Origin: a virus
Strand: one strand, 5' to 3'
DNA length: 64,000 nucleotides
IMG/VR virus record: IMGVR_UViG_3300032308_001684
Coordinates: 1-64,000 of that record
Shown: positions 45,147 to 52,670 of the stretch, piece after piece
Layout: every line of letters starts with the position of its first letter
Numbering within the stretch: position 1 is the first letter of the stretch
Translations under genes and position numbers: made by a program
The notes under the pieces: model-generated
What the model was told of the DNA's origin: nothing
The model's database searches: none
Seen by the model: the letters and a program-made list of their open reading frames with translations, nothing else

Positions 45147-45175
45147 ATTATAATATATTTTGAGTTGCGTGTCAA
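45147..45175 (-). promoter_or_regulatory. Perfect sigma70 promoter TTGACA-N17-TATAAT for the tRNA-Glu/ncRNA/rpoZ unit
   Basis: Exact consensus. Confidence 0.9.
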
Positions 45176-45190
45176 CCTGTAAATAGATTC

Positions 45191-46090
45191 ATGCACAAAC
45201 TTTTTATAGCTACCTATTCTGGAGATCTTGCCCAGTTTGAACTGTGTTGCCATTGCATTAACAAAAACTGGAAAGGCAATCGATTCATCACAATATCCTG
45301 GGGACAACCAAATCCCTTGCAACAGGGTCAGATTTTTAATATAGAATCACTCACTAGTCTGGTAACAGACATTTTTGACAGCGACTGGCAGATAGAAATA
45401 GTAGATGGCGCTGTGCCAGGAATGTCAGGCTACTGTGAACAACAGGTCAACAAAGTTAGATTTTCTATTGATCCTAGGTTTCAAGATACCATAGTGTTTG
45501 ACTGTAAAGATTTTTTACTCAAACCTACGGGCATTGATTTTTTCAAACCCAACGGTGTTTATCGTGTGGCATATTTTAAAAATGGCAACACATTTAAAGA
45601 ACAATACATATCTGCATTGGACATCATTGATCAGGTACCCAACAATGTTCCTACACCTTTTAACACTACTCCTTGGATATGGGCCGGCGGAGAGCTTGAA
45701 AAGTTTTGGTCTTACATGCAATCAAGATTTGGCCCATATCAATCCTGGAGAACTTTTCCTGGTGCAACAGAATGGTCAAACTTTTATATCTTCAACTACT
45801 GCGACCCAGAGTCAATGATGCCCATGACTAGTGCCGAATACGAGTTTGTTAACTTTTGTGGTGTATGGCAAACTCTCAGCCTTGAAGATATACAGCAACA
45901 AATCGTTGATTTTGATGTCTGGGATTCTATGCGCATATGGAAACATACCAGAAAAGATTCTACTCTCCAAAAGGTCGAGCTCACAGAGCAGGTACTTAAA
46001 AAATATGGAATAGAACAATCAGTGATTGATCAATGGAAACAACAACATCTTGCTGAAATCTTGCAGTCTGATTATTCTAAAGAATTTTGA
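45191..46090 (+). CDS. Glycosyltransferase-like hypothetical protein inserted antisense in the tRNA region
   Basis: 'GYCEQQVNK...IVFDCKDFL' GT-A-like; TAAATA just upstream. Confidence 0.55.
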   Translation: MHKLFIATYSGDLAQFELCCHCINKNWKGNRFITISWGQPNPLQQGQIFNIESLTSLVTDIFDSDWQIEIVDGAVPGMSGYCEQQVNKVRFSIDPRFQDTIVFDCKDFLLKPTGIDFFKPNGVYRVAYFKNGNTFKEQYISALDIIDQVPNNVPTPFNTTPWIWAGGELEKFWSYMQSRFGPYQSWRTFPGATEWSNFYIFNYCDPESMMPMTSAEYEFVNFCGVWQTLSLEDIQQQIVDFDVWDSMRIWKHTRKDSTLQKVELTEQVLKKYGIEQSVIDQWKQQHLAEILQSDYSKEF

Positions 46091-46430
46091 CCGGGTATTC
46101 TGTTACGAGGAACCCGGCAAACCCTAGGTTACCTTAGATCAGGCAGCCAATGCGTAAACTTCATCGTTTGCGTTTACTTTGATTTGCTTCTACGACCAGG
46201 TTACCCCAATCCTACGGGTTCTGCTTTCCCGTGTTGCCGTCTTTTCTAGCTCGCCATGTCGAAACCGGTCGAGCCCATCATAAAAAGACATGTATGCAAA
46301 CAAACGCAATCAACAGTATGACTACTATAGTGTACGATGTGTTAACCATATATCTCCTTATGGTGGACCCGGGGAGAATCGAACTCCCGTCCACAGCGCC
46401 TTCAAATTGAAGGATATACAACAATTCTTT
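46091..46430 (-). ncRNA. ssrA: Circularly permuted (two-piece) tmRNA, tag ANDEVYALAA
   Basis: Acceptor piece ends GGGAGTTCGATTCTCCC-CGGGTCC-ACCA (46361); coding piece starts GGGCTCGACCGGTTTCGAC (46276) giving G3:U70; tag ORF at 46139-46171; outer ends approximate. Confidence 0.92.
46278..46349 (-). CDS. 23-aa hydrophobic peptide MVNTSYTIVVILLIAFVCIHVFL inside the tmRNA intervening segment
   Basis: TAAGGAG RBS directly after the CCA; ORF fills the intervening segment. Confidence 0.5.
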   Translation of the reverse strand: MVNTSYTIVVILLIAFVCIHVFL

Positions 46431-46551
46431 CACGAGACTATCAGGACTTGAAGGCCCTCGCGTGGCCTAGGGACTCACACCCTATCAACATTCCAGCAGA
46501 TAAATCAGCGCCACTGGGTGTATACTCCTGCTAGTTGTTTACTTATCATCA

Positions 46552-46625: not shown

Positions 46626-46641
46626 AAAGAAAAAACCTGAG

Positions 46642-46854
46642 TCATCCCCAGGTTTCTTCGTACTTCTTCATGGCCAGTTGCCTGGCCAACCACAACCTAA
46701 ACTTTACATAATCACTGAGTTCAACGTCAACTGAATTATGTATTACTTCGGGTCTACGGTATCCTACATGTAGGTAATCATCTCCTTCATATACATACTC
46801 GCAATCATCGATTGTAAGTACAATGATGTGAGCAGGATTACTTTTTAGGAGCGT
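46642..46854 (-). CDS. 70-codon reading frame with no N-terminal ATG/GTG/TTG (possible ACG start)
   Basis: (T/M)LLKSNPAHIIVLTIDDCEYVYEGDDYLHVGYRRPEV...LARQLAMKKYEETWG; followed by a terminator-like hairpin. Confidence 0.4.
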   Translation of the reverse strand, partial: TLLKSNPAHIIVLTIDDCEYVYEGDDYLHVGYRRPEVIHNSVDVELSDYVKFRLWLARQLAMKKYEETWG

Positions 46855-47029
46855 CGGCTTTTTTGTCGTCTTTCTTAGCGTCGCTTTTGGTAGCGTCAGC
46901 GGCCTTCTTTTCAGCAGGCTTAGCAGGTGCTGCCGCGGCTGGCTTGGCTTCTTCTTTCTTGGCAGCAGGTGCCTGTGCGAAAGCGGATACAGCGAACAAT
47001 GATGCGATTAGTGTAGCTACGAGTTTCAT
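46838..47029 (-). CDS. Small secreted Ala/Lys/Pro-rich protein
   Basis: Signal peptide ending AFA-Q, low-complexity tail, AAGGAG RBS. Confidence 0.8.
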   Translation of the reverse strand: MKLVATLIASLFAVSAFAQAPAAKKEEAKPAAAAPAKPAEKKAADATKSDAKKDDKKADAPKK

Positions 47030-47126
47030 AAAAGTCTCCTTTTGGTTATGAAATGTAGAGAATCAACCTCTACACTATAATAACGCCTGTGTTGACATCT
47101 ACGTTGACACATTTGGCAAATATTTT

Positions 47127-47201
47127 TGGTACCCAAGGGTGGGAACGATCCACCGACCCTCGCCTTATCAAGACGATGCTCTACCACTGAGCTACTTGGG
47201 C
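47127..47201 (-). tRNA. tRNA-Ile(GAT)
   Basis: Cloverleaf with variant T-loop (GATCGTT), CCA. Confidence 0.88.
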
Positions 47202-47207
47202 ATGTCA

Positions 47208-47284
47208 TGGCCGGCCCTGAGAGATTTGAACTCCCAACTTCCAGTTTCGAAGACTGGCACTCTATCCAATTGAGTTAAGGACCG
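47208..47284 (-). tRNA. tRNA-Arg(TCG)
   Basis: Cloverleaf, CCA. Confidence 0.9.
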
Positions 47285-47289
47285 ATGAT

Positions 47290-47364
47290 TGGTCCGGCCT
47301 GCAGGAATCGAACCCACATTCACGGTGTAGAAGACCGCTGTATTATCCATTATACTAAGGCCGG
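47290..47364 (-). tRNA. tRNA-Arg(TCT)
   Basis: Cloverleaf, CCA. Confidence 0.9.
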
Positions 47365-47369
47365 ATATT

Positions 47370-47444
47370 TGGTGGTAATGGTAAGAGTCGAACTTACACT
47401 GAACACCGTATGAAGGTGGAGCACTACCATTATGCTACATTACC
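47370..47444 (-). tRNA. tRNA(CAT), probably elongator Met
   Basis: Cloverleaf, CCA; Met versus Ile2 not certain. Confidence 0.8.
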
Positions 47445-48171
47445 AAAAAATATGTTCGCGGATGTATTGAGCGTAGGCCACATGAGCCGGACGTAGAAAA
47501 TGTCCCCCGGGTGCTCTAGCAAAATTACGATCCATAGCAAAATTACAAAAATCTACATTGCCCACAGGCCTGAATATGTTGTCGTTCCAGTTAAAATCTA
47601 TCACTGCTTGGAAACTGTCTATGTTGATAACCGATATCGATCGATCCAGGGCTAATTTGTTCAAGGCCAGGATGTTTTTTATTTTGTTGATACGTCCGCG
47701 GTGATCGTGTCCTTCAAACATGATCCATTCACGTCCGTATCTCTCATAACGTTCGCGATTCTTTATTAGTGGGCCTATGTTGATGCCTTGCTGTAAAACA
47801 GGATTTCCCACACGAGCATGACTGATTCCATCGCCGTAATTGATGGGTATCCAGTATTGATGTTCTTCGTGCCATACTTCGCCACGATCACAACCAGTCC
47901 AGCAGGCTATCACGATGTCTTGATCTGTAAGACCGTCAATCTGTTCCAACAACACACGGAACATAGCATCGTTGCTACCGCCCGATATAGCATGATTTAT
48001 AGACTCGTAGCCCAGTGCATCGGCCAGTAATACAGGATAACTGTTTTTGGCGCCATATTCAACCTGCATGACAGGATGCTGGATATTGTTACTGGGTTCA
48101 GACCATATCTCAGCACCTGTGGCATGACTGCATCCTAGTATAATCGCTTTGTTCATCATGATACTTACCAA
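47440..48171 (-). CDS. SGNH hydrolase-like protein inside the tRNA array
   Basis: GCSH..G, GGSN, GGHF; exact start uncertain. Confidence 0.65.
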   Translation of the reverse strand: MVSIMMNKAIILGCSHATGAEIWSEPSNNIQHPVMQVEYGAKNSYPVLLADALGYESINHAISGGSNDAMFRVLLEQIDGLTDQDIVIACWTGCDRGEVWHEEHQYWIPINYGDGISHARVGNPVLQQGINIGPLIKNRERYERYGREWIMFEGHDHRGRINKIKNILALNKLALDRSISVINIDSFQAVIDFNWNDNIFRPVGNVDFCNFAMDRNFARAPGGHFLRPAHVAYAQYIREHIFW

Positions 48172-48247
48172 TGGTAGGACGTGCGGGATTCGAACCCACC
48201 ACCAATAGATTAAAAGTCTACTGCTCTACCCAATGAGCTAACGTCCC
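48172..48247 (-). tRNA. tRNA-Lys(TTT)
   Basis: Cloverleaf, CCA. Confidence 0.93.
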
Positions 48248-48253
48248 GATGTC

Positions 48254-48327
48254 TGGCAGAGGGTATAGGAATCGAACCTATAATAACGGAATCAAAATCC
48301 GTGGTTATACCATTTAACTAACCCCCA
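48254..48327 (-). tRNA. tRNA-Gln(TTG)
   Basis: Cloverleaf, CCA. Confidence 0.9.
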
Positions 48328-48335
48328 ACTGTGAT

Positions 48336-48411
48336 TGGTGCCGTCCCCTGGGATCGAACCAGGTTCCTCGGTGCTTCAAACCGGTGCTATGACCACATCA
48401 GCTAAAACGGC
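48336..48411 (-). tRNA. tRNA-Phe(GAA)
   Basis: Cloverleaf, CCA. Confidence 0.9.
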
Positions 48412-48413
48412 AT

Positions 48414-48487
48414 TGGTACCTCGTGACAGAATCGAACTGCCGCAACCGCCGTGTAAAAGCGGAGTTCTACCATTAAACTAACGAGGC
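48414..48487 (-). tRNA. tRNA-Val(TAC)
   Basis: Cloverleaf, CCA. Confidence 0.9.
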
Positions 48488-48560
48488 AAAAAAGAAAACC
48501 CAGACGCAGTTTGCCGACATCAACGAGAGATCTATAACCGGAGGTCTGGGCCATAATACT

Positions 48561-48635
48561 TGGAGCAGGTAGTCGGGGTCGAACCGACGGCATTCTCGTT
48601 GGCAACGAGACATTCTACCACTGAATTATACCTGC
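48561..48635 (-). tRNA. tRNA-Gly(GCC)
   Basis: Cloverleaf, CCA. Confidence 0.92.
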
Positions 48636-48638
48636 ATA

Positions 48639-48720
48639 TGGTACCCCTGCCCGGATTCGAACCGGGAAACATAGTCACTCCTTTTGAGAGAGCCGCCTTT
48701 TCCAATTTGGCCACAGGGGC
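48639..48720 (-). tRNA. tRNA-Leu(CAA)
   Basis: Cloverleaf with variable arm, CCA. Confidence 0.88.
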
Positions 48721-48728
48721 AATAAACT

Positions 48729-48805
48729 TGGTCGGAGTACAAGGATTCGAACCTTGGACCCCCTGGTCCCAAACCAGGTGCGCTACCAGGCTGCGCCACA
48801 CTCCG
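48729..48805 (-). tRNA. tRNA-Pro(TGG)
   Basis: Cloverleaf, CCA. Confidence 0.95.
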
Positions 48806-48811
48806 AATAAC

Positions 48812-48897
48812 TGGTACGACTGGCCGGACTCGAACCGGCACGCCATTAAAGACGACAGATTTTAAGTCTGTTGCGGCTACCATTACGCCACAGTCGC
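48812..48897 (-). tRNA. tRNA-Leu(TAA)
   Basis: Cloverleaf with variable arm, CCA. Confidence 0.92.
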
Positions 48898-48904
48898 AAA
48901 CATT

Positions 48905-48987
48905 TGGTGCCCCAGGTCGGACTCGAACCGACACGCACTAGGCACTGGCTTCTAAGACCAGCGTGGCTACCATTACACCACCGGGGC
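48905..48987 (-). tRNA. tRNA-Leu(TAG)
   Basis: Cloverleaf with variable arm, CCA. Confidence 0.92.
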
Positions 48988-48996
48988 AAAATTACA

Positions 48997-49072
48997 TGGG
49001 GAGAAGTATGGGAATCGAACCCATGCTAACGGAATCACAATCCGTGGTGCTGACCGCTACACTAACGACTCC
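48997..49072 (-). tRNA. tRNA-His(GTG)
   Basis: Cloverleaf, G-1:C73, CCA. Confidence 0.88.
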
Positions 49073-49078
49073 ATTGAT

Positions 49079-49168
49079 TGGCGGAGAGACTGGGACTTGA
49101 ACCCAGAAAGCGGCTTTCACCACTCGACGGATTAGCAATCCGCTCCAATACCATTATGGGACCTCTCC
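49079..49168 (-). tRNA. tRNA-Ser(GCT)
   Basis: Long variable arm, CCA. Confidence 0.92.
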
Positions 49169-49173
49169 ATGTT

Positions 49174-49390
49174 TGGTGTAGGCTACGTTTCCACATCGCC
49201 CCTACTTGAGTTGACTTCTCTGTCACTGTGTTTTATTCTCTGCCTAGTTACAGTTCTAGTCAGCGGTTCGGACTCCCTTATCTTCTATCTTACTGTAGAA
49301 AGACAGATGGGCACTCTTCTTAACGGGTCACCGCCCCCGACCCCTCTAACGACGGGCCACCGGTACAGATCACGTTCTGTACTGACGGGA
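49174..49390 (-). ncRNA. Candidate non-tRNA RNA(s) ending in ...GCCTACACCA between two tRNA-Ser genes
   Basis: CCA end at tRNA-like spacing, TAGGC/GCCTA stem, GTACAGA..TCTGTAC hairpin; no cloverleaf. Confidence 0.45.
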
Positions 49391-49391
49391 T

Positions 49392-49479
49392 TGGCGGAAG
49401 CGGTGAGATTCGAACTCACGGTACCTTTCGATACGCTGGTTTTCAAGACCAGAGCCATAGACCACTCGACCACACTTCC
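49392..49479 (-). tRNA. tRNA-Ser(TGA)
   Basis: Long variable arm, CCA. Confidence 0.93.
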
Positions 49480-49484
49480 TTACA

Positions 49485-49562
49485 TGGAGCAACAGGTAGG
49501 ATTCGAACCTACGACTTTACGGGTTTGCAATCCGTTGCATTTGACCACTCTGCCACTGTTGC
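49485..49562 (-). tRNA. tRNA-Cys(GCA)
   Basis: Cloverleaf, U73, CCA. Confidence 0.9.
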
Positions 49563-49568
49563 GTTGTT

Positions 49569-49645
49569 TGGCGACCCGGGAAGGATTTGAACCTCCGACA
49601 TTTGGTTTTGGAGACCAACGTTCTGCCAGACTGAACTACCGAGCC
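49569..49645 (-). tRNA. tRNA-Trp(CCA)
   Basis: Cloverleaf, CCA. Confidence 0.92.
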
Positions 49646-49651
49646 ATTGTT

Positions 49652-49743
49652 TGGTACCCCCAGCGGGAGTCGAACCCACATGAACCAATTATCTGTTGCT
49701 TACGGGATATAAATCCGCCGTTTTACCATTAAACTATAGGGGC
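49652..49743 (-). tRNA. Atypical tRNA-Ile(TAT) with a ~22-nt variable region
   Basis: Normal acceptor, D and T arms; GCGGA-TT-TAT-AT-CCCGT anticodon arm; 92 nt. Confidence 0.75.
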
Positions 49744-49749
49744 TATATT

Positions 49750-49826
49750 TGGCTCCTCAGGGTGGGCTCGAACCACCGACACCTTGATTAACAGTCAAGT
49801 GCTTCTACCGACTGAGCTACTGAGGA
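49750..49826 (-). tRNA. tRNA-Asn(GTT)
   Basis: Cloverleaf, CCA. Confidence 0.93.
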
Positions 49827-49833
49827 ATAAACT

Positions 49834-49908
49834 TGGCGGTCCCAAGGGGAATCGAACCCCTGCCGACGGCGTGACAAGCCGCTATACTTACCGCTATACT
49901 ATGGGACC
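49834..49908 (-). tRNA. tRNA-Asp(GTC)
   Basis: Cloverleaf, CCA. Confidence 0.92.
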
Positions 49909-49914
49909 AAGAAC

Positions 49915-49998
49915 TGGTGGAGACGGATGGATTCGAACCACCGTGCTGTTAAGAACAGATTTACAGTCTGCCGCAATCGACCACTCTGCCACATCTCC
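49915..49998 (-). tRNA. tRNA-Tyr(GTA), first tRNA of the main array
   Basis: Cloverleaf with variable arm, CCA. Confidence 0.93.
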
Positions 49999-50004
49999 AG
50001 ATTT

Positions 50005-50190
50005 TTAACACACTGTCGCCAGTGTGTGTATCGAAGCACACTACTCATCTGCTGACGCAATTTGATTGTTCGGCAATGTGCTTCGATACTCTGTGATTTT
50101 TCACACTACAAGAAGTGCTCCATCCCACAGGCCGCCCGTTCGTCCATGTTTAGAGTGCAGACTGGGACCTCGTTTCCCTTAACACTTTTG
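50005..50190 (-). ncRNA. Structured RNA leader directly before the first tRNA
   Basis: 13-bp stem 50028-50040/50077-50089, ACACACTG-GCGA-CAGTGTGT hairpin, GGGA..TCCC hairpin. Confidence 0.5.
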
Positions 50191-50193
50191 CTA

Positions 50194-50367
50194 TCAATTT
50201 ACACTAAACGTTGGCGCTTTGGCTAACGATTCGCGATATAGTCTAGCACGTTCAAACTTATCTTGAATAAGTTTTTGAAGCTGTTCTTGAGAGATTTCTC
50301 CAAAAGCAGTTTCATAAGCCTGTTCAACGATGCGTTCGTTTAATTTTTCGTAATCTATCTTTTCCAT
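50194..50367 (-). CDS. 57-aa protein MEKIDYEKLNERIVEQAYETAFGEISQEQLQKLIQDKFERARLYRESLAKAPTFSVN
   Basis: Translated by hand; AAGGA RBS; first ORF after the attenuator terminator. Confidence 0.65.
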   Translation of the reverse strand: MEKIDYEKLNERIVEQAYETAFGEISQEQLQKLIQDKFERARLYRESLAKAPTFSVN

Positions 50368-50381
50368 TTTTCCTTTTTGTA

Positions 50382-50418
50382 TAAAAACAAAGCCCCGGAG
50401 TGTTTAGTTCCGGGGCTC
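50382..50418 (-). terminator. Attenuator terminator of the tRNA operon
   Basis: GAGCCCCGGA-ACTAAACAC-TCCGGGGCTT-TGTTTTT. Confidence 0.88.
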
Positions 50419-50459
50419 TGTGTAGAATAAGTTACTATCTGACTTCTACTCAGAACCCC
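50412..50459 (-). promoter_or_regulatory. Antiterminator hairpin overlapping the leader stop codon and the terminator 5' arm
   Basis: GGGGTTCTGAGTAGAA (50459-50444) pairs with TTCTACACAGAGCCCC (50427-50412) at 15 of 16 positions. Confidence 0.8.
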
Positions 50460-50562
50460 CGACCCCGATCGCATCATTACGTAGGCAGGTAGGATGCCAC
50501 AAGAGACTTGTTGGCTCCATCTGTTTAAATGATATTGAATAGGATCTTTGTGTGTTCATCAT
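50446..50562 (-). CDS. Attenuator leader peptide MMNTQRSYSISFKQMEPTSLLWHPTCLRNDAIGVGGSE (all 20 amino acids)
   Basis: Translated by hand; starts at the predicted TSS and its stop lies in the antiterminator arm. Confidence 0.75.
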   Translation of the reverse strand: MMNTQRSYSISFKQMEPTSLLWHPTCLRNDAIGVGGSE

Positions 50563-50569
50563 AGTATCT

Positions 50570-50598
50570 ATTGTATGCGTTTATTTATTCCTGGTCAA
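50570..50598 (-). promoter_or_regulatory. Sigma70 promoter TTGACC-N17-TACAAT of the tRNA operon, with ATAAATA in the spacer
   Basis: Read directly; ATG follows 7 nt after the -10. Confidence 0.85.
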
Positions 50599-50621: not shown

Positions 50622-50649
50622 AAAAAACCCTACACAAGGTAGGGTTTTT
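50622..50649 (-). terminator. Intrinsic terminator after dctP (probably bidirectional)
   Basis: AAAAACCCTAC-ACAAG-GTAGGGTTTTT. Confidence 0.85.
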
Positions 50650-50667: not shown

Positions 50668-51627
50668 TCAAGCCTTGCGTTCAATTGCCTCAACCAGTCC
50701 TGGTGTGAACGTGTCACGGAACTGATCATAGACACCTGACAATGCTACCTTAGCGGCGTCGCGTTGTTCTTGTGTCCACTTGACAATGTTGGCACCTTCT
50801 TCTTGAACTAGACGCTGTTCGGCACGAGCACCATCACGGATGGTCTCAGCACGTTCTTCACGTCCTGCAAGAATAGCGGCTTGCTTGATCACGGCCTGAA
50901 CTTCAGGGCTCATTGTGGCCCAGAACTTGTCACCAATGATCATTGATGTGAGGAACAAGCTGTGGCCTGTGTCAATCACTGACTTGGTAACTTCATTCTG
51001 ACGCAATGGGTACATACGTGGGTAGTTGGTTTCGCCACCTTCGGCTTCGCCGTCGACCACTACTTGGCGCAGGTCTTCTACTTCAGCAACAACAGGCTTC
51101 ATGCCCAGTGCAGAAATAGTTGCTTGTGCAACAGGGTTACGGTTTGAACGAACTGCTGTACCAGCAAGCTCTTCTAAAGTGCTAACTTTCTTGTTAGCAA
51201 TCATCTGACGGAAACCGCCAGAGTATGTGAAACTCAATCCACGTACATTAGACTTGTCAGTGAGTTTGTTGAGAAGAGTCTCTCCAACTTCACCTTCTAG
51301 CACACGGGTAGCATGCTCATGATCTTTAAACAAGAAAGGAAGATCAAATACCAAGAAGTCTTGTTCATACTTCTCAGCAAGCCATGTGGTGTACATCTGG
51401 CTCATTTCAATCTTGCCTGCTTCCATGAGATCTAGCAAATCATGCTTGGTGACCACAACACCATCGTTATAACGCTGGCTGTACTCTGAAAGAGTCATGA
51501 TTTCAACTTCGATCTTGTGCTCGCTTTGTTGTTCGTTTACACGACGCTCAAAGTCTTCAGCGGCACGAAGGAAAAGGTTTAAAGGCTCATGGGCGATAAC
51601 CCAACGAATCTTAGTAGTTTTGCTCAT
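50668..51627 (-). CDS. TRAP transporter substrate-binding protein (DctP family), no obvious signal peptide
   Basis: 'VFDLPFLFKD.EHA', 'GGFRQM', 'W..(M)SPE.Q.VI'. Confidence 0.88.
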   Translation of the reverse strand: MSKTTKIRWVIAHEPLNLFLRAAEDFERRVNEQQSEHKIEVEIMTLSEYSQRYNDGVVVTKHDLLDLMEAGKIEMSQMYTTWLAEKYEQDFLVFDLPFLFKDHEHATRVLEGEVGETLLNKLTDKSNVRGLSFTYSGGFRQMIANKKVSTLEELAGTAVRSNRNPVAQATISALGMKPVVAEVEDLRQVVVDGEAEGGETNYPRMYPLRQNEVTKSVIDTGHSLFLTSMIIGDKFWATMSPEVQAVIKQAAILAGREERAETIRDGARAEQRLVQEEGANIVKWTQEQRDAAKVALSGVYDQFRDTFTPGLVEAIERKA

Positions 51628-51656
51628 TTTTTATATCCAAATTTGGTAGTTTAAAT

Positions 51657-51768
51657 GTGCTCGCGATTGCTCGCTACGGTTCGGCGTTCTAGGCATAACA
51701 TGCTAGTAAATGGGTTTTACCCAAGGCGTCGTTGTAACCGGCGTCGATCACCTGACCGGCGCTGCCAT
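51657..51768 (-). ncRNA. Candidate cis-regulatory RNA in the dctP 5' leader
   Basis: TGGGT-AAA-ACCCA, CTAGCAT..ATGCCTAG, GCGA-GCAA-TCGC, CGGTT..AACCG. Confidence 0.45.
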
Positions 51769-51770
51769 TA

Positions 51771-52670
51771 TTATTTAGCCAGTTTCACACCTTGGCTCAG
51801 GCGTTTCCACAGGGTAACTTGTGAATCAAACCAACGCTGTGTGGCGGTAGCGTCAAGATTGCTGGGCTCGCAGTAGTCCACAGCATAAGCTCGTTGTACG
51901 CTGGCAGCTTTGGCAGCTTCAACAACCATGCCACGAAGTTCATTGTACTGTGTGTCGGGCATGGATCGGGGTACTTGTAAGCTGTGCATGTTGACCACTT
52001 CGCCTACTCCAGCAAAGCCCTGACTTTCTAAAGTAGGAACTCCACGCACAGTTCGACGTCCAGAGATGCCCAGGGCATGTAGATCGCCTTTGTCTAAGAA
52101 TCCTTCAACTTCTCCCAGGAATGCCACACTGAGTTCAATGTTGCCTGAGATGACATCCATGCTGGCTTCACGTGTGCCTTTGTAGGGCACTGGCTGTGCA
52201 TTGGGGAAACGCTTGACAATCTCCATGGCCATCAAGTGCGATGTAGCACCCAAACCAGAGATACCAATGTTGATGGGCTTTGACTTGTCAACTTCCTGCC
52301 AGCTACGATATTTTTTGCTCACAATGACCATGGGTGCGGCACACTGTGTCATCAATGGCCGGAAGTCTGCCACTGAGTGACTTTCTTCAGGATAAAAGTT
52401 TGGGCGAACAAAGAAGGCAGTAGATGCACTCAATACAGTGTTAGGGGTGGTTGCTACGTGTTTGGCACCAATGGTTGCTCCTGCTCCTGGTTTGTTTTCC
52501 AAGATGAATGTGTATTTCTTTTGATTCTTGTTGAGCTCTTCAACAAGACTACGGCTGTATTGTGCTTGTGTGTCGCCCATGCCAAAGGGCCATATGATAG
52601 ATACGGTCTGTTGTGCTTGAGACGAAAGCGATGCCAATGTGACGGCACTGGCGATTAAAAACTTTTTCAT
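51771..52670 (-). CDS. TctC/Bug family tripartite tricarboxylate transporter binding protein
   Basis: Signal peptide, 'ENKPGAGATIG', 'VPYKG', 'VPTLESQG'. Confidence 0.9.
   Translation of the reverse strand: MKKFLIASAVTLASLSSQAQQTVSIIWPFGMGDTQAQYSRSLVEELNKNQKKYTFILENKPGAGATIGAKHVATTPNTVLSASTAFFVRPNFYPEESHSVADFRPLMTQCAAPMVIVSKKYRSWQEVDKSKPINIGISGLGATSHLMAMEIVKRFPNAQPVPYKGTREASMDVISGNIELSVAFLGEVEGFLDKGDLHALGISGRRTVRGVPTLESQGFAGVGEVVNMHSLQVPRSMPDTQYNELRGMVVEAAKAASVQRAYAVDYCEPSNLDATATQRWFDSQVTLWKRLSQGVKLAK

Follow-up and report, generated by a model that had tools for sequence, protein, structure and literature searches.

How does a large phage control the transcription of its transfer RNA (tRNA) genes? 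The question is raised by a stretch of 64 000 nucleotides (nt), positions 1–64 000 of the IMG/VR virus record IMGVR_UViG_3300032308_001684, which we refer to as the window. Between 41 and 59 kb its minus strand carries 28 tRNA genes, covering all 20 amino acids, and a permuted transfer-messenger RNA (tmRNA) gene. The parent record comprises 95.8 kb with a completeness estimate of 28%, and the window is therefore a fragment of a giant phage; its relatives are contigs of 260–357 kb. The roles of tRNA arrays in large phages are debated; proposals include compensation for codon usage, a substitute supply for host tRNAs that have been degraded, and evasion of anticodon nucleases. We analysed the leader region which heads the main tRNA operon of this phage and which contains a short open reading frame (ORF) with all 20 amino acids. 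It is probably a ribosome-mediated (leader-peptide) transcription attenuator, the leader of which would gauge the decoding of every amino acid.

All features of the leader lie on the minus strand. Transcription is predicted to start from a sigma-70-type promoter, TTGACC-N17-TACAAT (50570–50598), with a conserved TAAATAA motif in the spacer. It is the sole match in the window to the pattern of the promoter family, TTGAC-N5-8-TAAATA-N5-9-TAYAAT, with 0 matches expected by chance. The leader ORF (50446–50562) starts with ATGATG, the first ATG being at 50562 and thus 7 nt past the –10 hexamer. It lacks a Shine–Dalgarno (SD) sequence and is probably leaderless. It has 38 codons followed by TAG (50448–50446), and a direct count from the sequence gave all 20 amino acids and 32 distinct codons. 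Past the ORF there is an intrinsic terminator, ACAGAGCCCCGGA / TCCGGGGCTTTGT with a T-run (50383–50421), which has a 13-bp stem, a 9-nt loop and a free energy (ΔG) of –23.3 kcal/mol. The last four codons, the stop codon and 2 nt more form the 5' strand of an antiterminator, GGGGTTCTGAGTAGAA (50444–50459), and the 3' strand, TTCTACACAGAGCCCC (50412–50427), overlaps the 5' arm of the terminator. The two strands form 14 Watson–Crick pairs and one G-U pair with one mismatch, giving a hairpin of –21.9 kcal/mol. On all these points, namely the promoter, the start without SD, the amino acid and codon counts, the pairing at 15 of 16 positions and the terminator, a first-pass annotation made from the letters of the window had been correct. 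The antiterminator strand lies within reach of a ribosome at the ORF end or the stop codon. All features that define an attenuator at the sequence level are present: a promoter-proximal ORF, a terminator, a mutually exclusive antiterminator and an antiterminator strand near the stop codon.

To collect relatives, two anchor proteins were used, the DctP-like protein encoded upstream of the leader and a protein of 57 amino acids (aa) encoded directly downstream of the terminator. This gave 97 viral loci (related viral loci are given L-numbers such as L027 and L054), and a second scan of viral contigs with protein alignment found the same loci again. An out-of-sample set of 65 metagenome loci was fetched after the hypothesis had been formed. 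Altogether, about 80 related phages keep the design, and the collection comprises 83 distinct leader peptides (50 from viral contigs and 33 from metagenomes). The metagenome and RNA samples holding relatives are labelled lake, river or freshwater. No phage in GenBank matched the locus (blastn) or the 57-aa protein (tblastn), and therefore no cultured relative is at hand.

The order of leader, terminator, 57-aa ORF and tRNA array is common to all relatives with enough flanking DNA. With a profile of the leader region, about 60 of the 97 loci were found to have the terminator immediately before the 57-aa ORF, and each locus has exactly one ATG-initiated ORF of at least 25 codons ending 40–140 nt before the end of the terminator. 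Compensatory changes, from GGA/TCC to AGG/CCT, are found in the terminator stem. A co-oriented tRNA array is present at every locus with enough downstream DNA, usually starting 350–500 nt past the terminator. Comparison of the relatives thus establishes the anatomy of the element: the ORF, the promoter, the terminator and, as described below, the mutually exclusive helix are conserved, and there is selection for amino acid completeness. One divergent locus (L096:3700–4000), which was missed by the nucleotide profile and was read by eye, again has a complete leader, of 57 codons and with all 20 types, together with an 11-bp antiterminator free of mismatches, GGGGTTTCATA/TATGAAACCCC.

A promoter of the form TTGAC-N17/18-TAyAAT is found at every related locus examined. 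In 18 distinct forms, which include the window clade, the ATG is located 0–10 nt past the –10 hexamer (6–10 nt in most forms, 0 nt in L036 and L045). These are leaderless starts, several of them with a double ATG (ATGATG). The remaining leaders have an untranslated region of 20–61 nt with a hairpin and a purine-rich tract. In four loci (L036, L045, L049 and L050) the first ATG abuts the –10 hexamer; translation there probably begins at codon 4, also an ATG, and would again be leaderless. When the likely start is taken, leaders range from 35 to 53 codons. One frame is open in 50 of the 50 distinct viral-contig leaders, while the other two contain on average 3.2 and 4.3 stop codons and are never open. 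The five closest relatives differ by in-frame indels of 3 nt and by several synonymous changes. We infer from the sequences that the leader ORF is translated.

What does the leader peptide encode? The first-pass annotation had drawn attention to its complete set of amino acids. The set is indeed complete, but this is not a rare property within the window, where it is shared by 4 of 247 ORFs of 30–60 aa. Within the window alone it is weak evidence. The property owes its significance to the relatives, and across them the comparison is decisive. All 20 amino acids are found in 68 of the 83 distinct leaders. Among the 50 viral-contig leaders, 39 have 20 types, seven have 19 and four have 16–18; the 33 new distinct metagenome leaders comprise 29 with 20 types, two with 19 and two with 18. 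(Three of the metagenome ORFs are 61–73 aa long, as the first-ATG rule over-extends their 5' end.) As null models, we used windows from phage coding sequences, of which 0.2–0.5% have 20 types at a length of 38 aa and 3–4% at 50 aa, and random short ORFs from the same loci, of which 0.9% have all 20.

The median pairwise identity of the 50 viral-contig leaders is 29%, and clustering at 50% identity gave 10 leader clusters, seven of which have complete members. When 10%, 20% or 50% of the residues were substituted at random in a simulation, only 50%, 27% and 7% of the leaders stayed complete, an outcome that holds with replacements drawn from the leaders' own flattened composition. Cys is present in 48 of the 50 leaders, as a single copy in 46 and spread over 16 alignment columns, although its proteome frequency predicts presence in 43%. 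His, internal Met and Tyr each occur in 50 of the 50 leaders, in 13, 20 and 17 columns, respectively. Cys, His, Tyr, Phe and internal Met are thus almost always in the leader, often as a single copy and at shifting positions, and about seven amino acids per leader are singletons. In a clade of 31 members, 41 of 46 codon columns vary in the amino acid without a third-position bias. The L098 lineage lacks Lys; each of two newly found relatives has one, and its position differs between the two. A few residues (W, D, R) are conserved in position. Taken together, the comparison indicates that selection acts on the presence of amino acids and not on their position, and that the peptide is otherwise hardly constrained.

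The antiterminator is conserved as a structure. In transcripts truncated before the 3' arm of the terminator, the 5' arm pairs with the ORF end. Relative to the end of the stop codon, the pairing partner is located at –13 to –5 in a short form (the window clade, L097, L027 and others) and at –28 to –17 in a long form. The two strands have changed together, resulting in clade-specific complementary pairs such as GGGGUCC/GGACCCC, GGGUUCC/GGAACCC and GGGUUUU/AAAACCC, and further GGGUCUUAGUUAA/UUAAUUAAGACCC and GGGGUUUUUAAUUA/UAAUUAAAGACCCC; the window has GGGGUUCUGAGUAGAA/UUCUACACAGAGCCCC. In the window, the antiterminator duplex has a ΔG of –20.5 kcal/mol as compared with –9.5 ± 2.2 for shuffled sequences. 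In most representatives, duplex energies are typically 2.6–7.3 standard deviations better than those of shuffles, and they are much better than those for pairing with the first 45 nt of the ORF. The RNAalifold consensus of the 31 long-form leaders is the antiterminator. In their alignment, the structure tested (antiterminator and ORF-internal hairpins) is 96% paired, with eight pairs changed on both sides. None of 500 shuffles attained this level of pairing with double changes, and when the register was slid, pairing was 33–50%. Duplex and fold analyses were carried out per sequence, because when the 3' parts were aligned globally with MAFFT, the antiterminator strand of short-form leaders was placed out of register with that of long-form leaders. 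The first-pass annotation had anticipated that homologues located before tRNA arrays would keep a diverse, poorly conserved short ORF together with a covarying alternative hairpin, and this is what the relatives have.

The ORF-internal hairpin of the long form also covaries, UGG (Trp) with CCA (Pro) and UCGAUU with GAUCG (Asp-Arg), and it may act as a pause hairpin. A few residues stay fixed while the rest of the peptide drifts because their codons build this hairpin, and leader codon usage is skewed mainly by RNA helices. The ORF-internal hairpin differs between clades and is built differently in the window clade. There, a stem-loop GAUCCU...GGGGUC encloses inner hairpins in the ORF body (50461–50546; minimum free energy (MFE) fold with z = –4.3); it is a candidate pause or anti-antiterminator element. 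A search of Rfam at the gathering threshold and at E ≤ 10 gave no family for the leader; weak matches to Thr_leader and His_leader cover only the terminator.

The effect of ribosome position was modelled by masking nt –15 to +11 around each A-site codon and computing the MFE structure. A clean switch was obtained in six of 14 representatives (L054, L064, L069, L072, L077 and L027). In these, the terminator forms only when the last 8–14 codons are occupied; with the ribosome elsewhere, or with ribosome-free RNA, the antiterminator is the structure obtained. The two hairpins of the window are nearly iso-energetic (–21.9 versus –23.3 kcal/mol), and the truncated transcript folds into the antiterminator first. 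The folding behaviour expected from the first-pass annotation, an antiterminator before the 3' arm of the terminator is made and a terminator once the last codons are masked, was thus recovered. The sensing part of the leader, which we define as the codons ahead of the masked tail with an 11-nt footprint, retains 19–20 amino acid types in 36 of 50 leaders. The interpretation of the locus as an attenuator is supported at the comparative and the structural level, and the position of the ribosome is predicted to decide on termination.

The mechanism that we propose is as follows. Transcription would start from the strong sigma-70-type promoter, and the 5'-terminal AUG would be translated while RNA polymerase advances. 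The last codons and the stop codon serve as the 5' strand of the antiterminator, and the 5' arm of the terminator as its 3' strand. A fast ribosome that has reached the stop codon would occupy or melt the antiterminator strand, leaving the terminator free to form and to end transcription near 50383. An upstream ribosome that is slow or stalled, or the absence of one, would allow the antiterminator to form first, and polymerase would continue into the 57-aa ORF and the tRNA genes. A lack of almost any charged tRNA should slow translation of the leader because it has at least one codon per amino acid, often exactly one, and the element would then be a general gauge of decoding speed and tRNA supply. 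We lean, if only slightly, towards the more specific view that this 'one-of-each' leader is a universal charged-tRNA gauge, by which replacement tRNAs would be made on demand and switched off once decoding speed is restored. Negative feedback on the phage's own tRNA output would also be possible because the products are tRNAs. As triggers one may speculate about codon-usage mismatch, host shut-off and tRNA cleavage by anticodon-nuclease defences.

Which genes would be controlled by the switch? The first gene past the terminator has an SD sequence (AAGGA) and codes for the 57-aa protein (50194–50375 including the SD, ORF 50367–50194). It is followed by a highly structured non-coding spacer of about 195 nt (49999–50193; ΔG –69.3 kcal/mol, z = –4.4), then by tRNA-Tyr as the first of 22 co-oriented tRNA genes identified with ARAGORN and Rfam (47127–49998), and finally by tRNA-Ala and tmRNA. 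The first-pass annotation had listed the 22 tRNAs from 49998 to 47127 with tRNA-Ala and tmRNA behind them, which is right, and had overlooked the intervening 57-aa ORF and spacer. Between the terminator and tRNA-Tyr, a scan of the window called neither a promoter-like nor a terminator-like site. The simplest reading of the sequence is a single transcript that would carry the 57-aa ORF and the structured spacer along with the first 22 tRNAs or more. The spacer includes a 17-bp stem and may serve in processing or anti-termination of the untranslated array.

Among the relatives, the 57-aa protein has a mean column identity of 76% with a conserved IDYxKLNERIVEQAYE...EQLQKLIQDKFERA sequence. There are 541 homologue clusters in metagenomes, nearly all of them annotated as 'hypothetical protein'. 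No Pfam or PHROGs family and no recognisable RNA-binding family was found for it, and its AlphaFold model is a two-helix hairpin, which is too simple for a fold search. The protein might be a regulator or a factor related to tRNA or translation.

A number of observations weigh against the attenuator interpretation or against the universal gauge. In the window clade, the mask scan is untidy, and at equilibrium full-length RNA without a ribosome prefers the terminator, in the window by a slight margin (–58.6 versus –55.6 kcal/mol). The sensing part of the window leader (codons 1–31) contains 18 types, Gly and Val being found only in the masked tail, as the first-pass annotation had cautioned for the final Gly and Val codons; in most relatives, Glu is on the boundary between the sensing and the masked part. 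The first gated gene codes for the 57-aa protein, which is without annotation, and therefore the tRNAs need not be the sole or the main target. Phage-specific promoters inside the tRNA array are possible as well. Contigs assembled from four lake RNA runs, solely from relatives of about 90% identity, cover the tRNAs, the 57-aa ORF and the dctP-like gene; the leader is outside this coverage, and its translation, 3' ends at about 50383 and co-transcription with the tRNAs are predictions from sequence.

Further points of this kind concern the match between leader and array. The least diverse leaders, with 16–17 types, are those of a minority clade, L036/L045/L049, and the clade L036/L045/L049/L050 has the smallest tRNA sets (10–12 genes). 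L049 is a 100%-complete genome with 11–12 tRNAs and a leader of 16 types. Leader gaps correspond to tRNAs absent from the phage in L098 (Lys), in L092 (Phe) and in L036/L049, the clade with a reduced array, but not in L024/L008 (Val) or L009/L039 (Cys), where the phage encodes those tRNAs; three lineages agree and three others do not. Leader codons that are Watson–Crick cognates of phage anticodons are not enriched (0.44 observed versus 0.505 expected).

Could the ORF and the alternative pairing be coincidental neighbours of an ordinary terminator? The 4 of 247 short ORFs mentioned above and the abundance of promoter-like hexamers in the window (20 found, 12 expected) would allow for this at a single locus, but conservation in about 80 distinct homologues effectively refutes it, and we give it next to no weight. 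An attenuator that responds to a trans-acting factor on the leader RNA rather than to aminoacyl-tRNA supply, with translation being incidental or resetting, is a more serious alternative which we nevertheless consider unlikely. The factor might be the 57-aa protein in an autogenous circuit, an RNA-binding protein of host or phage, uncharged tRNA or a small ligand, acting for example at the ORF-internal hairpin. Such a factor would find a target in the covarying hairpin of the long-form clade, which is made from the codons of conserved W, S-I, D-R and P-E, and the highly conserved small protein is always the first past the terminator; the lack of match between leader codons and phage anticodons points the same way. 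The hairpin is not the same between clades, however, and no riboswitch, T-box or other family of Rfam matched the leader. The 57-aa protein, as a plain helical hairpin without a recognisable RNA-binding family, is not an obvious candidate. The open frame in all 83 leaders and the retention of 20 amino acids at drifting positions are left unexplained by a trans-acting factor.

A promoter, about 180 nt and a strong terminator are also the architecture of a stand-alone small gene. The product would then be a functional micro-protein, or the terminated transcript would be a trans-acting small RNA, with the terminator as a leaky gene end and completeness without regulatory meaning. There is a precedent in rnTrpL/peTrpL, a leader-derived small RNA and peptide with second functions (PMC7968998), and the positional conservation of W, D and R could be taken as that of a peptide under constraint. 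We regard this explanation as quite improbable. The 41 of 46 variable codon columns without third-position bias are unlike those of a folded or binding peptide, and the conserved residues coincide with RNA helices. Moreover, the stop codon is always inside the helix that competes with the terminator, which covaries across clades, and completeness is kept against drift.

Several other features of the locus were recorded. Upstream, a bidirectional hairpin terminator (50623–50649), identified by terminator scan, sequence and the Pfam DctP match, closes the DctP-like gene (50668–51627, minus strand) and isolates the leader promoter from read-in. Genes for solute-binding proteins of the DctP family (TRAP) and the TctC family are located directly upstream of the tRNA operon (50668–52670, minus strand); no transporter membrane genes were seen near them. 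Within the array, an ORF of 243 aa (47440–48171, minus strand) with a weak match to DUF6071 (E-value 4e-6) is located between tRNA-Lys and tRNA-Met. The array is otherwise tightly packed except for a gap of about 220 nt without tRNA call between two tRNA-Ser genes (49169–49391, minus strand). A tRNA with the anticodon UAU (Ile; 49652–49743, minus strand) is unusually long with 92 nt, and its gene recurs in the arrays of L100, L101, L102, L103 and L147.

A second attenuator cassette was looked for before the remaining tRNAs of the window, and this candidate was rejected: the gap 46626–47126 contains no leader but an ORF of 63 aa (46838–47029, minus strand) between tRNA-Ile and tRNA-Ala, which has a signal-peptide-like N-terminus and a low-complexity tail rich in Lys, Ala and Pro. 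The tmRNA (46048–46465, minus strand) was called as beta-proteobacterial and permuted (RF01850, 121.6 bits; RF04321, 115.6 bits), with the tag ANDEVYALAA. A perfect consensus promoter, TTGACA-N17-TATAAT, is found at 45147–45175 (minus strand), 35 nt upstream of tRNA-Glu, and the distal tRNAs are therefore probably transcribed separately, free of attenuation.

Leader-peptide attenuation is a textbook mechanism. To our knowledge, it is known solely for leaders that sense one or a few amino acids and that control biosynthetic or synthetase genes. The T-box, in comparison, works without translation, by direct binding of one specific uncharged tRNA. With the T-box, the phage element shares a cis-acting leader RNA, a choice between terminator and antiterminator and the coupling of tRNA charging to read-through of translation-related genes; it differs in having a conserved ORF and in the lack of a match to the T-box covariance model in Rfam.

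The amino-acid-operon attenuators trpL, hisL, pheL, leuL, thrL, ilvL/ivbL and pheST (pheM) are leader-peptide systems (PMC1183508, PMC3082878; in part general knowledge). The phage element has the same geometry, with an ORF close to the promoter, a terminator some 70 nt beyond the stop codon and the 5' strand of the antiterminator at the ORF end, and the same predicted logic, by which fast translation leads to termination. Classical leaders contain runs of regulatory codons, whereas the phage leader has no run and a one-of-each composition; they control biosynthetic or synthetase genes, whereas the phage leader heads tRNA genes. The phage leaders are also longer (35–53 codons), in many cases leaderless, and phage-encoded, and their likeness to Rfam families is confined to the terminator.

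Sensing of general ribosome stalling caused by antibiotics has been described for the leaders of bmrB-bmrCD (PMC4191407) and PA5471.1/armZ-MexXY (PMC13041342). There, as proposed here, a translated leader reports general impairment of translation, and stalling induces the downstream genes. These systems are bacterial, have protein-coding efflux or resistance cargo and have not been reported to be compositionally complete. In Anabaena, the L-array (trn operon) comprises about 26 accessory tRNA genes that are silent until translation is impaired (PMC8421152). It is controlled by TrcR, a repressor of the ribbon-helix-helix family, on direct repeats of the promoter (PMC10272220, PMC8421152). The L-array is the nearest published functional analogue of spare tRNAs made on demand, differing by its protein repressor; the terms leader peptide, attenuation and terminator do not occur in the text of the TrcR paper. 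In full-text searches of the literature we found neither leader-peptide control of tRNA genes nor a compositionally complete leader, although such searching cannot prove absence. By its predicted mechanism, the phage element is a case of leader-peptide attenuation in which the sensor design and the cargo are unprecedented.

If this reading is true, the locus would represent a new design principle, a universal decoding-speed meter that controls tRNA genes. Omission of any amino acid or tRNA should then raise read-through, and a leader without the corresponding codon should lose this one response and keep the others. The rare residues, which are always present yet wander along the peptide, illustrate cleanly how selection can act on what a peptide contains rather than on its sequence, and this compositional signature may be used to find similar sensors elsewhere. 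For the giant phages which carry the element, it would be the first cis-regulatory account of the timing or dosage of tRNA arrays in large phages, and it would provide the tRNA genes with direct feedback by their own products via the speed of translation.

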